The position numbers and the translations under genes were made by a program. 64,000 nt of DNA from Mobula hypostoma (taxonomy: Eukaryota). Under the pieces are notes generated by a model. The model was not told where the DNA came from, searched no databases, and was given only the letters and a program-made list of their open reading frames with translations. The stretch is taken from the NCBI RefSeq assembly GCF_963921235.1, contig NC_086097.1, positions 4,774,001-4,838,000 of the forward strand, given 5' to 3'. Below, in pieces: positions 36,778-45,672 of the stretch. Numbering within the stretch: the first letter of the stretch is position 1; every line of letters starts with the position of its first letter.

Positions 36778-38327
36778 TTTCTTTCTTTTTAAATCTTTTT
36801 ATTGAATAAGTATACAAAAAGGTAAGCCATATAGGCACTAATACACTGTTAGAATATAATAAAATTACAGGAGATATTAATACAGATAAAAAATGATACA
36901 AACAATGTAATTTAAACATAACATAATAAGGTAACATAATAGTATACTAATTTTTATATATATATATATCAATAGAGAAAAGGAAAAAAAAACCCCAAAC
37001 CCCCCCCCCAAAAAAACCCACCGTGCAACTAAACTAAAAGCAAAGCAAAGCAATGGGCTAACTTGGAACCAAGTAGAGTTAAAGAACTTAAAATCACGTC
37101 CTCAAACCCGACCTCCATTAAAAACAGTAAAAAAAAACAAGAAGGGAATATAAATATGGAGCAAAAAAGAGAAGAACAAAAAAAATTACATTAAATGAAA
37201 ATATTGAATAAAAGATCTCCAGGTCTGTTCAAATTTAAGTGAGGAATCATAAAGATTGCTTCTAATTTTCTCCAAATTCAAGCGTAATATCGTCTGAGAA
37301 AACCAAAAAAAGGTAGTTGGAGCATTAAGCTCTTTCCAATGTTGTAAGATACATCTTTTCGCCATTAAAGTAAGAAATGCAATCATTCTACGGGCTGAAG
37401 GAGAAAGATTACTGGAAATTTTAGGTAATCCAAAGATAGCAGTAATAGGGTGAGGAGAGATATCTATATTCAATACCTTTGAGATAATATTAAAAATGTC
37501 TCTCCAAAAAGTTTCCAGAGTAGGACAAGACCAAAGCATATGAGTTAAAGAGGCTATCTGCCCCGGACATCTATCACAAAAAGGATTAATATGAGAATAA
37601 AAACGAGCTAATTTATCTTTGGACATATGTGCTCTATGAACAACTTTAAATTGAATTAGGGAATGTTTAGCACAGATAGAGGAAGTATTGACTAATTGTA
37701 AAATCTGCCCCCAGTCATCCACGGAAATGATAGAGCCCAATTCCTGTTCCCAATCTACCCTAATCTTATCAAATGGAGCTTTCCTAAGTTTCATAATAAT
37801 ATTATAAATCATAGCTGATGCACCTTTCTGACATGGATTAATGTTAATTATAGTATCTAAAATATATGTAGGAGGAAGCATTGGAAAGGAAGAAAGTATA
37901 GTACTTAGGAAATTTCTAACTTGTAGATATCTAAAAAAATGTATTCTTGATAAATTATATTTATTAGATAATTGTTCAAAAGACATGAGAGAACCATCTA
38001 AAAATAAATCCAAAAACTGTGAAATACCCTTAGTCTTCCAAATTTGAAAAGCACGATCTGTGAAAGAGGGAGGAAAAAATATGTTACCTAAAATAGGAAT
38101 CATTAGCCCAAATTGGTTAAGATCAAAAAATTTTCTGAATTGAAACCAAGTACGTAAGGTATATTTAACTATCGGGTTAGAGATCTGTTTGAGGCGTTTC
38201 AAATCAAAAGGAAGAGAGGAACCTAAAATAGAGCCAAGTGTATAGCCCTGAACAGATTGTAATTCCAATGCTACCCATTTAGGAATGGATAGTATATCCT
38301 GGTCAAGTAACCAAAATTTCATATGTC
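36778..38327 (-). mobile_element. L1-clade LINE, young and 5'-truncated
   Basis: Uninterrupted ORF2 C-terminus (FFRYLQVR, QFKVVHR, CDRC...HMLWSC zinc finger); AATAAA plus A-rich tail; 19-bp TSD GAATAAAATCCACAAAGTC (36759-36777, 38328-38346). Confidence 0.92.
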
Positions 38328-38974
38328 GAATAAAATCCACAAAGTCAATGGCAGTGAGAAGATTATTTGAGATGTGACATCCTCTGCTGAATAAAATCTA
38401 AGAAGAAAACAGGGTAAAGGAAAGGGGTAGTTACGTTACTAAGCCATGAGGAGCAAGGTAACTATTTGGACAGATACATTGAAGTTTGCATTGTGCGTGG
38501 CAACTTTATACATGGGTCTCTGGCTCTGCTATTCTATCTCCCAGCTGGTCCAAAGCACAGGATAAGATGAAAGATGCTATTATGAAGGGACACGATATGC
38601 AGAACTATGCCAAAGGAACATCTGTGTGTATGAGGCATAATGGCTTTAGGTTAGGTTATTGGTTTAGAATCTAGTGGCTTGGACCATGGAACTGCAGATA
38701 GACCCATGGTGGTAGTTTCAGAACTTGAATTCAAATTAATTTGAAAAAAGCAACTGCTACCAACAAGGATAAAGAAGCAACTACCACTCTGTAATATCCT
38801 TTGTGGGAGGAAAAGTGCAGTCCTTATTTGCTTTAATCTAAATGTGACACCAGATAAACTGAAGTTGTTGATACTAAACAACCTCCCATATCCAGCAGCT
38901 TGGCTGGAGAGGGCAGTGAGAGACCATCAGTACTCGCTTTGACACCTTGGCCAAAGTTAATAACTTCATTGAAG

Positions 38975-40654: not shown

Positions 40655-41302
40655 TGTAAGGGTTTTTGCCCTCCTGACCCCCTGTTGCCTAGGGTAAATA
40701 GCCGTTGACCCTGCCAAACAGTGCAATCACTTAGGTGCAGATAAGGTGCGAGTCGCCCAATGAACAGCCACAACACAAATATGAAAGCAATATACCAAGC
40801 GCGAGTAAAGAATTTTACTTTACTTTTTAATTTTTGGTGATGGGTTAGTAGAAATTACTACAAAAAACTAGGCCCCACATAAGTAACTTATCAGTCTTGT
40901 GCACATAATATTTTAATACGTTGGCGATCACGCCTCCGATTCCATCCGCAACGTCCTTCCGAGACTCCGGCCACCCTCCGAACACCCGAGGTCCGGTATC
41001 TGCTGCCCTGGAACCGCTGTCCGTTCCTCACACGTCCGTCCTCTCCGCTCACCTCCCGAAAAGCCCCGCGCTCCTCAACTCAGCACACATATACAAGATA
41101 GCAGAACATGACTTCCATTGGCTAACAAATGAATACAACTTCCATTATCTCCCTGTGTAACCCAGACATTGCAGTTACAGAGAACCCCTTGCTCAGCAGT
41201 TAACAGTACAAGAAACCATTTTAATATAACACTTCAGAGAAGCCATTTTGGTAATAAGCGATCAACAGTTAACAGTCCACCTAGTATACTGAGAGCCCTA
41301 CA
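40655..41302. mobile_element. Solo LTR (648 bp)
   Basis: TGTAAGGG...CCCTACA termini; 4-bp TSD GAGG (40651-40654, 41303-41306). Confidence 0.85.
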
Positions 41303-41335
41303 GAGGGTACAAAGCTTGGGTGTGCCTGTCAGAAT

Positions 41336-44117
41336 CATCATCATAGCTTGTCATACCCCAGACAGCCAGCCACTCTAGTGTTGTTTGGTTGATGTTGAGC
41401 AGGTCAGTGTCAGCTAAATCAGGTGAGAGTGGGCAGTTGTGCATGACGTGTTCAATGTTCTGCACCCTTTCGCCACACTCACAGGATTCGCTGGTCTTTA
41501 AACCCCACTTCACCATATTGTCTCCCGTCCTACAAACTCCCGCTCTCGCTCTGTTGAGAGCGCACCACTTCCGTCTGTCAAGCAGTGCCCCGTCTGGTAA
41601 CATTTCTGTGGGGTCTTGCACTGTATTGTTTGGTGGGATTCTGGCTTCTGTTTGTGGCCAGAGATCAATCTTGTATATTTGGGGGGGATGTTCCGTGCGG
41701 TAGTTCCTCCACTGTAGCAAAGCTTTTCCTCGAGTTTAGGCGGTTGGAAACTGGCACATGACGATGTAGTGGGTGCCGTGGATCCGAGTTCTGTTTACCT
41801 TTTTAAATTTTTGTTATAGTGTGTCTTTGGATCTCTGGGGTGCGATGCCTGCAAGTCTGTAGGGACATTAGTAGGTGTGGGGCGCAGTGTGCCCGTGATT
41901 ATTTGGTAGGCTTCGTTAAGCAACGGGTCTATTTTTTTCGCATGTGCACACAGGTGCAGGGTATTCTGCAGGTGCATAGCAGAGTGCTAGGGCAGTTGAT
42001 CTAAGTGTGTGAGCATTAGCTCCCCATTTCATACGTGCTAATATTCTCAGGAGAGAATTGCAAGAGCCAACTTTCCCTCGGAGTTTTTGGATGTGGGTGG
42101 CAAATGGGAGCGTCCTATCCAGTGTCACGCCCAGGTAAATTGGAGTCGGATGGTGTTTGAGCTCCTTCCCACACCAGAAGATCTGGAGTTTCCGAGCTGC
42201 TTCTCAATCCCTCAGGTGGAATACACACACCTGAGTTTTTGATGGATTTGGGTTTAGGGACCATTTTTCATAATACCACTTCATTGCTCCGAGGACTGTT
42301 GTAAGTCGTACTTCAACTTCTTGGAAGAGGTTAGCTTGTGTTGCTATGCATAGGTTGTCTGCATTGATAAACCTGCATGTGTTAGGAAAGGTTGGTTGGT
42401 CGTTTGTGTAGACATTAAATAGAGATGCCAGGACTGATCCCTGTGGTAGTCCATTCTTTTGTGGATGCCACCTACTCTTAGTTCCATTCATTTCTACATA
42501 AATTCTATGATTTTCTAGGAGGCTTCTTATTACTTTGACTGTGGTTTTGTTCTTTAACATTTTAGAGTTTATAGAGAGTGCAGAGCAAGGAAATTGGTCT
42601 GTAGTTTTTAAAAATGTTGGGGTCTTTATTGGGTTTTAGGAGAGCAACAACTTTGGCTCTTCTCCACTTTTTAGGTATCTTTAATGATCTTCGGCAAAAG
42701 GGGACAGAAGCCAGTGGAGTGCTTTAGGTCCAAGATGTTTAAGGAATTCATTAAGAATCCCATCTATGCCAGCAGCTTTGTTGGATTTTAGCTGTGATAC
42801 TTTATCCTTTAATTCTTCTAGGGTGAGAGGTGGGAAGTTGACTCCATCTCCTGATGTTGTTTTTTTCTTTTGCCTCCCCTCCTTGTTATTTGGTCGACCA
42901 TTTAGTATCAGTTGGTGGACAACCTGATTAGGTGTTACGGCAGAAATTTTCTGTGGTGGTCTATTGTCTGAGTTGAGTTTCTGGACAGTTGCCCATGCCT
43001 TCTTACTGTTCTTGGTCATGCCTGTGTTTTCTATCAGTTTCTGCCAACACTGTTGTCTCTCTTGGCTCAGTAGGGACAGAACTGACTCTCCCATTTCAAT
43101 TGTGTCTTGACTAAATGGGCCTTGTTCGTATAAGTTGACATACACATCATAACTTTGCTTGATATCACTAGTCAATCCCTGAGTATATTTGGTTCTGCAG
43201 CCTCTAGGTATGTTCTGCTGTGCTACTTTCCTGATTAGTCAGACAAATTCATCATAATGATCAGGTTCTGGTGGTATGGTATCAATAAGTTGATCAAAGG
43301 ATTCTGCGAAAGATGTCCAATTCGCTTTTCTCAGGTTAAATCTTGGTAGTTACTTTGATGGTACAGGTCTCAGAATTGGAAGGGATTCTACCTGGACTGG
43401 ATGGTGTTGGGATTTGGGTATATGTTGGAGGACTGTTCGTGTGAAGAGGTTGGAGCTTGCCGAGGTAACAAAGGCAAGGTCTGGGTTGTATCCTTTTCTC
43501 CATCTGGCACTTGTGAAGGTAGGGGTGTCCTTTGACTCGTATAGTAGCTCAAGGCTGTTGTTTAGAGCCCATGATACAACTTCTTCTCCATTTGCATCAT
43601 CATCTTCGTATCCCCAGTTGGTGCTATGGCTATTAAAGTCACCAATAATGAGGTACATTTTGTCCTGGAGATCTAGGTTAGGTAGCCACATGAATGGTTC
43701 ATTAGAGGTTTGTAGACCAAGATGATATTTATGTGTTTTGTTTGAACTTTCAGAAGTTCCATTGAGCCAGCTTGGATGTTTGCTGTGCTCATTACTATAG
43801 ATCTATCTTTAGCAAAGATTGCACTGCCATAGGGGTGTCAATAGCCAAGTGCATTCCTGGCACATAGGGTTGGTTGTCCAGCCTATGAGTCTCTTGTATG
43901 TACAAGATGTCCGGTTTAAGTTTGCCAGGATTTCTGCTTTACTGTGGCTGAAGCCTTCGAAGTTGTGGATAACGATTGTCATGGTCTCCAGTGGGCCGAG
44001 GGTTTATCCTTTTACCACCCACTGGATCACTTGGTCTGGCGCGTAATGACAGGATTGGTCTCCTTTCGGATTAACAGCGTCACGGCGTGAACGTTCCTGA
44101 CTCGACCCCCCCCCCCC
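41336..44117 (-). mobile_element. Vingi/Ingi-type LINE with both ends present, ORF disrupted
   Basis: ATG at 43982 (MTIVIHNFEG), IGDFNSHSTNWGY, SARWRKGYNPDLAF, KAAGIDGI, QKNGLPQGSVLA, WGANAHTLRSTALALCY, CECG...HVMHNC; no RNase H seen; (ATG)n tail; 8-bp TSD GTCAGAAT (41328-41335, 44118-44125). Confidence 0.85.
44048..44110 (-). ncRNA. HDV/CPEB3-like ribozyme at the Vingi 5' terminus
   Basis: P1 GGGGTC/GACGCT, P2 CAGGA/TCCTG, P3 ACG/CGT, L3 TTCACGC, J1/4 GT, P4 TCC-GAAA-GGA, J4/2 CCAA. Confidence 0.75.
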
Positions 44118-44392
44118 GTCAGAATAAAAGGTAAAGATAACAGGTGTAGGGAGCCTTGATTTTCAAGAGATACTGAGGCCCTGGTTAAGAGCAGAAAGGA
44201 GGTACAAAGCAGGTATGGGCAGGTAGGAACAGTTGAGGAGCTTATGGAGTACAAGAAATGCAAGAGAATACTTTGGAAAGAAATCAGGAAGGCGCCCACC
44301 TGGAGTGCAGAGTATAGTTGTGGTTTCCTTTAAAGGGTGAGGGAGGGGTTGGGATGAACTCACCTTTGAGACAGATGAAGATTGATGAGCTC

Positions 44393-45672
44393 GAGTGCCA
44401 CAGTAGCATAGTGCTTAGTACATAGTAGCCATACTTTACTTTATTGATCCCGGGGGAAATTGGTTTTCGTTTACAGTTGCACCATAAATAATAAATAGTA
44501 ATAAAACCATAAATAGTTAAATAGTAATATGTAACTTATGTCAGGAAATAAGTCCAGGACCAGCTTATCGGCTCAGGGTGTCTGACCCTCCAAGGGAGGA
44601 GTTGTAAAGTTTGATGGCCACAGGCAGGAATGACTTCCTATGACGCTCAGTGTTGCATCTCGGTGGAATGAGCCTCTGGCTGAATGTACTCCTGTGCCCA
44701 CCCAGTACATTATGTAGTGGATGGGAGACATTGTCCAAGATGGCATGCAACTTAGACAGCATCCTCTTTTCAGACACCACCGTGAGAGAGTCCAGTTCCA
44801 TCCCCACGACATCACTGGCCTTACGAATGAGTTTGTTGATTCTGTTGGTGTCTGCTACCCTCAGCCTGCTGCCCCAGCACACAACAGCAAACATGACAGC
44901 ACTGGCCACCACAGACTCGTAGAACATCCTCAGCATTGTCTGGCAGATGTTAAAGGACCTCGGTCTCCTCAGGAAATAGAGACGGCTCTGACCCTTCTTG
45001 TAGACAGCCTCAGTGTTCTTTGACCAGTTCAGTTTATTGTCAATTCGTATCCCCAGGTATTTGTAATCCTTCACCATGTCCACACTGACCTCCTGAATGG
45101 AAACAGGGGTCACCGGTACCTTAGCTCTCCTCAGGTCTACCACCGGCTCCTTAGTCTTTTTCACATTAAGCTGCAGATAATTCTGCTCACACCATGTGAC
45201 AAAGTTTCCTACCGTAGCCCTGTACTCAGCCTCATCTCCCCTGCTGATGCATCCAACTATGGCAGAGTCATCAGAAAACTTCTGAAGATGACAAGACTCT
45301 GTGCAGTAGTTGAAGTCCGAGGTGTAAATGGTGAAGAGAAAAGGAGACAAGACAGTCCCCTGTGGAGCCCCAGTGCTGCTGATCACTCTGTCGGACGTAC
45401 GACACTATTACAGCCTGAGGCATCAGAGTTCGGCCTTCAATTCTGGTGCCATCTTGAAGGAATTTAGATGTCCTCCCCATGAACACATAGGTTTCCCCGG
45501 GTACTTTGGTTTCTTTCCACATTGCCAACGATGTACTGGTTAGTACGTTAATTGGTCATTAAATTGTCCTGTGATTAAGCTAACATTAAATAGGTGGGTT
45601 GCTGTGTGGTGGGGGGTTCATTGGACTGGAAGAGCCTGTTCCACTCTGTATCTCGAAATAATGAAAATAAAA
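44393..45672 (+). mobile_element. tRNA-derived V-SINE-like element split by a LINE
   Basis: A-box-like head at 44395-44421 resumes at 45401; B-box-like TTCAATTC; V-domain-like ggtttccccgggtactttggtttctttccaca; AAATA tail. Confidence 0.7.
44422..45396 (-). mobile_element. Young Rex1/Babar-group LINE (second family), 5'-truncated
   Basis: Uninterrupted 273-aa ORF: GAPQGTVLSPFLFTIYTSD, KFSDD, YKYLG, SFLPVAIKLYN; GTAC at 44418-44421 and 45397-45400. Confidence 0.9.

Follow-up and report, generated by a model that had tools for sequence, protein, structure and literature searches.

The locus considered here raises the question of whether a LINE may carry, at the very start of its RNA, a self-cleaving ribozyme of the hepatitis delta virus (HDV) type that resembles the CPEB3 ribozyme, and to which LINE clade such an element would belong. 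The window, by which is meant the whole stretch of DNA that was analyzed, comprises 64,000 nt of Mobula hypostoma (NC_086097.1, 4,774,001-4,838,000, forward strand), and all positions given below are those of the window. On its minus strand lies a LINE at 44117..41336, an insertion of 2,782 bp that opens with a run of 12 G directly inside an 8-bp target-site duplication. This arrangement, along with the minus-strand string that follows it, reads exactly as the original prediction had claimed. The parts of the element, in the order in which its minus strand is read, are the following:

44125-44118, minus strand: 5' copy of the target-site duplication, ATTCTGAC, read from the sequence
44117-44106, minus strand: 12-G run that opens the LINE, read from the sequence and followed by UCGAGUCAGGAACGUUCACGCCGUGACGCUGUUAAUCCGAAAGGAGACCAAUCCUG
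44048..44109, minus strand: candidate HDV-like (CPEB3-type) ribozyme with predicted cleavage 5' of G44109, from threading, descriptor and Rfam
43983..44047, minus strand: remainder of the 5' UTR, read from the sequence
41345..43982, minus strand: single decayed ORF with AP endonuclease, reverse transcriptase and C-terminal zinc knuckle, from Pfam and frame reading
41344-41336, minus strand: 3' tail of the LINE, (ATG)3, ATGATGATG, read from the sequence
41335-41328, minus strand: 3' copy of the target-site duplication, ATTCTGAC, read from the sequence directly after the 3' tail

The duplication is perfect (8/8 bases) and exactly 8 bp in length, since the bases immediately outside its two copies differ. 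The empty site was sought in the contigs of three public runs (X1, X4 and X11, each from another organism) mapped on 43800-44300. In the contigs of all three runs the upstream flank, 44118-44293, is a very abundant repeat; 139-226 contigs per run match this flanking repeat as far as 44118 and then run on without the LINE, their consensus beyond that point agreeing, by hand count, in 23 of 30 bases with the window sequence past the 3' duplication. The insertion site is thus bridged by copies of the host repeat that have no interruption, and the inserted DNA starts at the first G, 44117. A raw-read run, X21, added a single read on this interval and is uninformative. Because these copies cross the empty site and the duplication is perfect, the 5' end of the LINE is fixed without reference to any fold of its RNA. 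Among the 18 loose ends listed, with 640 further ones outside that list, none suggests that copies share sequence upstream of the G run, the case named in the original prediction as refuting it, and no second copy of the LINE was found within the 64-kb window.

The coding region of the LINE is a single frame that opens with the ATG at 43982 and reaches the tail, interrupted by 11 in-frame stop codons and by no frameshift, and in comparison with the best relative its reverse transcriptase is without approximately 77 aa, roughly at 42566-42704. By virtue of these stop codons and this deletion, the copy is dead. A stop codon also falls between the ribozyme candidate and the ATG, which places the candidate in the 5' UTR. 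Relatives of the LINE protein in the protein database are 910-995 aa in length, often on contigs of 3.0-3.6 kb, and were found in Branchiostoma, sea urchin, crustaceans, insects, fishes and Anolis; a protein-profile scan of viral contigs revealed no relative. The database names of these relatives are uninformative ('jockey-like', 'X-element' or 'hypothetical'), and the relatives in the PDB are L1 ORF2p, R2 and TRAS1, which leave the clade unsettled. Endonuclease and reverse transcriptase are shared by all aligned relatives (21/21) and the zinc motif by 8/21, while RNase H is found in 0/21. The Vingi clade is described, in the relevant passages of two sources, as compact, with a single ORF of 993 aa, without RNase H and sister to Ingi (PMC3708506, PMC13708176); Vingi-2_Gav is given as 3128 bp (PMC5786205), and amphioxus and Anolis both have named Vingi families (PMC3391268; PMC13708176). 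The LINE studied here is likewise compact, with a single ORF for AP endonuclease and reverse transcriptase and no RNase H, and by architecture and size its family most likely belongs to the Vingi clade.

Read from G44109, inside the terminal G run, the minus strand presents the helices and core letters of the HDV nested double pseudoknot in canonical order. The ordered threading put forward in the original prediction is correct in this respect, and the empty-site evidence locates it at the true 5' end of the element. In RNA letters, the predicted parts of the fold are:

44109-44104 with 44081-44076, minus strand: P1, GGGGUC/GACGCU, pairing G.U, G-C, G-G, G-C, U-A and C-G
44103-44102, minus strand: J1/2, from the threading
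44101-44095 with 44054-44048, minus strand: P2, CAGGA/UCCUG, five pairs, with U-U towards the outer end
44094-44092 with 44084-44082, minus strand: P3, ACG/CGU, pairing A-U, C-G and G-C
44091-44085, minus strand: L3, UUCACGC, 7 nt
C44089-G44075 and U44090-U44074, minus strand: P1.1, C-G plus U-U
44073-44059, minus strand: P4, 3 bp closed by a GAAA loop
44058-44055, minus strand: J4/2, C-C-A-A, adjoining the 3' strand of P2, with C44058 as the predicted catalytic C

P1 is closed in this copy by the G+1 wobble, G44109-U44076, and the G that P1.1 needs follows P1. The core letters of L3 (U, C and G at positions 1, 3 and 6) and of J4/2 (C-N-A-A) are both present; the list of core positions of HDV-like ribozymes draws in part on general knowledge of this fold. 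P4 consists of 3 bp with an irregular base, and the Rfam alignment flags three P4 pairs as non-standard. Eight G (44110..44117) stand between the duplication and the predicted cut, and thus the insertion does not begin at +1.

The Rfam CPEB3 model, to which the original prediction had looked as a check, singles out the expected family at a score beneath its cut-off. At gathering thresholds, no Rfam family matches anywhere in the window. At E-value thresholds, CPEB3_ribozyme (RF00622) alone among 4227 families matches the region, over the full length of the model and with 14.7 bits against a gathering cut-off of 35, the E-value being 0.34 for a query of 351 nt and 0.089 for one of 91 nt; none of the other HDV-like families among the 4227 matches the region. 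The fit of P2 comes on top of these 14.7 bits, because the Rfam model omits that helix. In nested folding this copy has no advantage in stability over shuffled sequences (z +1.45, with 193 of 200 shuffles equal or better), and the pseudoknot was not recovered by minimum free energy folding.

The level of resemblance to be expected by chance was gauged with a descriptor of the HDV-like fold, written after the candidate was known and run on both strands of the window and on dinucleotide shuffles of it. In its loose form the descriptor calls for a P1 of 6 bp and tolerates a single mismatched pair in it, and in its strict form it adds U, C and G at positions 1, 3 and 6 of L3 along with the P4 hairpin. 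The real window contains a single match on both strands, at 44109. The loose form found 1225 matches in 1258 shuffled windows, 137 of them with a perfect P1, and at about one match per shuffled window it is, taken alone, at the level of chance. The strict form gave 100 matches in 1543 shuffles (0.065 per window, or ~5e-7 per base), and 10 in the same 1543 when a perfect P1 was demanded as well (~5e-8 per base). The argument for more than chance is the location of the match, which starts among the 12 bases that open the LINE, at a 5' end set without regard to the fold. As a control, the 17-base P3-L3 core was scanned in genome contigs, which returned 53 sites in 52 prokaryotic loci, approximately the number expected by chance; the full fold occurred at 0/53 of these sites, and the 303 kb of control loci, on both strands, held one loose match, away from the sites of the 17-base core. 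Two metagenome scans for ribozyme motifs gave no match.

The 5' region of the LINE is present in the contigs of all three runs, and its letters there bear on the weak points of the copy in hand. These data are depth-weighted majority letters per site, not linked sequences, and are given in RNA sense. Among the variants listed, three sites within 44048-44109 differ in their majority at 10% of depth or more, namely 44078, 44049 and 44076. Site 44078 is C in 96-98% of the depth across the three runs, which turns the G-G of P1 into G-C; site 44049 is A in 98-99.6% of the depth, by which U44100-A44049 is gained and, with G44101-C44048, P2 is lengthened to 7 bp. With the majority letters at both sites, the energy of P1, P3 and P4 combined falls from -6.1 to -10.5 kcal/mol. 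Judged from these letters, G44078, at the third pair of P1, and U44049, in a pair of P2, are private pair-breaking changes of this copy, and the suspicion that the G-G mismatch was peculiar to it is borne out by the restored pair in three other organisms. The wobble U at 44076 is uniformly U in X4, while X1 and X11 read G at 69% and 55% and A at 19% and 8%, respectively. The P4 loop shows a minor G-to-A variant at 44067, and among the variants listed none of at least 10% falls on the J4/2 C-N-A-A or the L3 core sites.

The deviant letters at 44076 probably come from a second, more abundant family that shares the 5' end of the LINE. In X1 and X11, though not in X4, the depth over 44038-44088 exceeds that downstream 5-10 times, and a loose end at 44034 is supported by 31 contigs in X1 and 51 in X11. 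This depth step and the supported loose end point to a second, far more abundant repeat family that would carry only the first ~76 bases of the LINE, those above ~44034. A comparable case has been described in the alligator, in which bases 61-127 of SINE2-1_AMi match bases 2-74 of Vingi-2_Gav (Kojima 2018, PMC5786205). As far as descriptions can be compared, SINE2-1_AMi and Vingi-2_Gav show the same arrangement as the second family, with ~76 bases in common and divergence thereafter; in the passages of PMC5786205 that treat them, the shared module is not termed a ribozyme and Vingi does not figure among the ribozyme-bearing clades. By way of speculation, a G at the wobble position could stop a SINE-like family from cutting off its own head.

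Taken as a whole, the candidate is likely to be an HDV-like 5' ribozyme heading a compact single-ORF AP-endonuclease LINE family, most likely of the Vingi clade and here in decayed form. The LINE family probably trims the start of its own RNA, as several other LINE families do, an activity suggested by the fit of about the first 61 bases of the LINE to the hepatitis delta/CPEB3 fold. Nascent RNA of an active element, in many cases read through from host DNA upstream, would fold into the nested double pseudoknot, in which C44058 of J4/2 would act as the general acid and the chain would be cut 5' of G44109, wobble-paired with U44076. The ribozyme would then stay on the 5'-hydroxyl LINE RNA and give it a defined and protected 5' end, and translation of this RNA would begin at the AUG at 43982, while target-primed reverse transcription would copy it into a target. 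The eight G at 44110..44117 were probably added at the 5' junction during the integration of this copy, by untemplated addition or slippage; they would not be templated, because an RNA cut at +1 would start downstream of them. The borders of the element, the threading, the Rfam match and the majority letters in relatives are direct observations; that the RNA folds and is cut, where the cut falls and how the extra G arose we infer, the last by analogy with the 5' junctions of R2 (PMC3774820).

Two other explanations deserve consideration. It is improbable that the resemblance arose by chance and that the conserved first ~75 nt serve as a 5' module with another job, be it an internal promoter like the Pr77 of L1Tc, or a signal for the protein of the element or for second-strand synthesis. 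Such a reading accords with the frequency of loose matches in shuffled windows, with the subthreshold Rfam score and with the absence of a thermodynamic signal, as well as with majority letters other than U at the wobble position in X1 and X11 and with the keeping of the module in the more abundant family, as an active ribozyme within a SINE would be expected to cut off its head (PMC5786205). It does not readily account for a match so close to an independently determined 5' end given the strict rate, nor for majority letters that repair P1 and extend P2, the latter a helix outside the Rfam model that then pairs at every aligned position. A promoter role, moreover, would be compatible with a ribozyme, since L1Tc has both (PMC3185411).

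The other explanation grants that the fold is real and assigns the element to RTE, an L2-like group or some other clade of compact LINEs with a single ORF, in which a 5' ribozyme has already been described. RTE elements are of similar size, have reported 5' ribozymes and have donated 5' parts to SINEs (PMC5786205), the names of the relatives in databases give no guidance, and the placement in Vingi follows from architecture and size, not from a reverse transcriptase phylogeny. The combination of endonuclease, reverse transcriptase and C-terminal zinc knuckle, with RNase H in none of the 21 relatives, nevertheless argues against this assignment. The lengths of the relatives and of their contigs agree with the 993 aa of Vingi (PMC3708506) and the 3128 bp of Vingi-2_Gav (PMC5786205), close relatives occur in Branchiostoma and Anolis, where Vingi families have been named (PMC3391268; PMC13708176), and the second family shares the 5' end to about base 76, matching the overlap of SINE2-1_AMi with bases 2-74 of Vingi-2_Gav (PMC5786205). 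Assignment to another clade is accordingly regarded as rather unlikely, and a Vingi element with an HDV-like 5' ribozyme is the reading carried forward here.

Elements of six LINE clades are known to carry an HDV-like ribozyme at the 5' end; no report of a Vingi ribozyme emerged from the full-text literature searched, a body that does not extend to key older works. If Vingi is indeed a ribozyme-bearing clade, the case for a 5' ribozyme inherited by the Ingi-Vingi lineage would be strengthened, and the preservation of the first ~75 nt in internally deleted derivatives and in a SINE would be explained. Gene-writing platforms derived from Anolis Vingi-1 keep the native 5' UTR on both driver and donor RNAs (PMC13708176), and the pertinent passages of this 2026 review of Vingi-based gene-writing tools describe that retention and name no ribozyme (PMC13708176). 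A self-cleaving, exonuclease-resistant fold in the Vingi-1 5' UTR, if true, would affect the design of gene-writing RNAs.

One of the nearest known systems is the mammalian CPEB3 ribozyme. Counted by hand, the candidate agrees with the Rfam CPEB3 consensus at 37 of 65 bases, starting at +1, and 16 pairs can be aligned (6 in P1, 7 in P2 and 3 in P3), five of which are changed on both sides and yet remain paired; one of the 16 is altered from G-C to G.U and none is broken, given the two majority letters. Within P2, all 7 aligned positions pair with the majority letter at 44049, three of them with changes on both sides relative to CPEB3 (hand count). Both RNAs have a G-rich start, an L3 identical at 6/7 positions, GU after P1, C-N-A-A-U before P2, and a P2 of equal length and place. 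The background on known HDV-like ribozymes in the original prediction, which had credited CPEB3 with a single P1.1 pair, is borne out by published work; a P1.1 of one G-C plus U:U, described as a peculiarity of CPEB3 (PMC9901934), is common to both. In contrast, the P1 of the candidate is one pair shorter and its P4 much shorter and unlike that of CPEB3, and the candidate occupies the 5' end of a multi-copy LINE, whereas the CPEB3 ribozyme is intronic in a conserved gene at a single locus.

That the mammalian CPEB3 intronic ribozyme is the exapted 5' end of an ancient Vingi-type LINE can be entertained as a tentative possibility. Conservation of the CPEB3 ribozyme is reported to reach back ~159 My, with no reconstruction of what came before (PMC8233481); the human genome contains a Vingi fossil family, X12_LINE (PMC5753468). 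The unlike P4, the shorter P1 and the score below threshold count against descent, as does the fact that unrelated cores can resemble each other, since HDV-like cores of separate origin share many bases, R2 and HDV agreeing at 21/27 (cited in PMC8256844). The idea is nonetheless plausible and testable and makes a good lead; the likeness opens the origin of the CPEB3 ribozyme to a simple genomic test. If true, it would give that ribozyme a concrete transposon origin, with the 5' ribozymes of Vingi elements from reptiles and other animals as its closest surviving relatives.

The 5' ribozymes of R2, R4, R1, RTE and LOA have the position and presumed role, excision from a co-transcript, proposed for the candidate. 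They belong to other LINE clades; the P1 of R2 often uses upstream 28S sequence, and many of these ribozymes have a long J1/2 or no P4. R2 is instructive in regard to the extra G, as its 5' junctions are variable and contain untemplated bases, much as here, even with a ribozyme that cuts at the exact 5' end (PMC3774820; PMC5786205), and such bases are not passed on, being cut away when the ribozyme next cleaves (PMC3774820). In R2, mismatches in P1 are uncommon and accompany a loss of in vitro cleavage, and P4 can be absent (PMC3774820). By this analogy, the P1 mismatch of the present copy probably impairs it, in line with the suspicion voiced in the original prediction, and its short P4 would be no obstacle.

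A proven case is L1Tc of the sister clade Ingi/L1Tc, which has an HDV-like ribozyme with a single-pair P1.1 in its first 77 nt, a 5' module that acts as both promoter (Pr77) and ribozyme (PMC3185411). Cleavage has been shown experimentally for L1Tc and is predicted from sequence for this LINE, and Ingi/L1Tc elements encode an RNase H, whereas the LINE family described here is without one. Both are LINEs with one ORF and an AP endonuclease, in which the ribozyme or its candidate takes up the opening ~77 nt and has one Watson-Crick pair in P1.1, and in both, non-autonomous derivatives retain the 5' module.

The dead, probably Vingi-type LINE (minus strand) lies within a very abundant interspersed repeat, window positions 44118-44293 and 41298-41327, which is its insertion site. 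Across contig sets from three other organisms, the contig depth summed over this host repeat lies in the tens to hundreds of thousands. Stretches of 54-107 bases are missing from the interior of many of these contigs, between approximately 44138 and 44253. The decayed LINE ORF (41345-43982, minus) features in-frame stops that are TAA in 8 of 11 cases and bears zero frameshifts across 2.6 kb, an unusual decay pattern.

Two other open stretches in the window have retroelement-type matches:

44565-45404, minus strand, 279-aa open stretch that belongs to a separate retroelement and lies a short way upstream of the LINE
37186-38397, minus strand, open stretch of 403 aa with a zf-RVT match (1.1e-05)

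The latter probably represents the C-terminal portion of ORF2 from another LINE. The 279-aa stretch presents Pfam RVT_1 (1.3e-07) followed by ALKBH8_N (1.2e-11), an odd combination for a LINE C-terminal region.

Among the prokaryotic control loci sharing the 17-base P3-L3 core of the candidate ribozyme, one Gemmatimonadaceae MAG (L046 1501-1717 and L004) contains three occurrences, two of them just 200 bases apart, which suggests a local repeat; the HDV-like descriptor was completed at none of the three sites.

The candidate ribozyme module itself is shared with a second family (44034-44109, minus), present in two of the three contig sets at 5-10 times the abundance of the LINE. In these two, it is common to the LINE over only the first ~76 bases, corresponding to the module, and diverges beyond. 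Position 44076, which in the LINE is a U predicted to wobble-pair with G44109 (+1) in P1, is probably mostly G or A in this family, which may represent a SINE of the SINE2-1_AMi kind.
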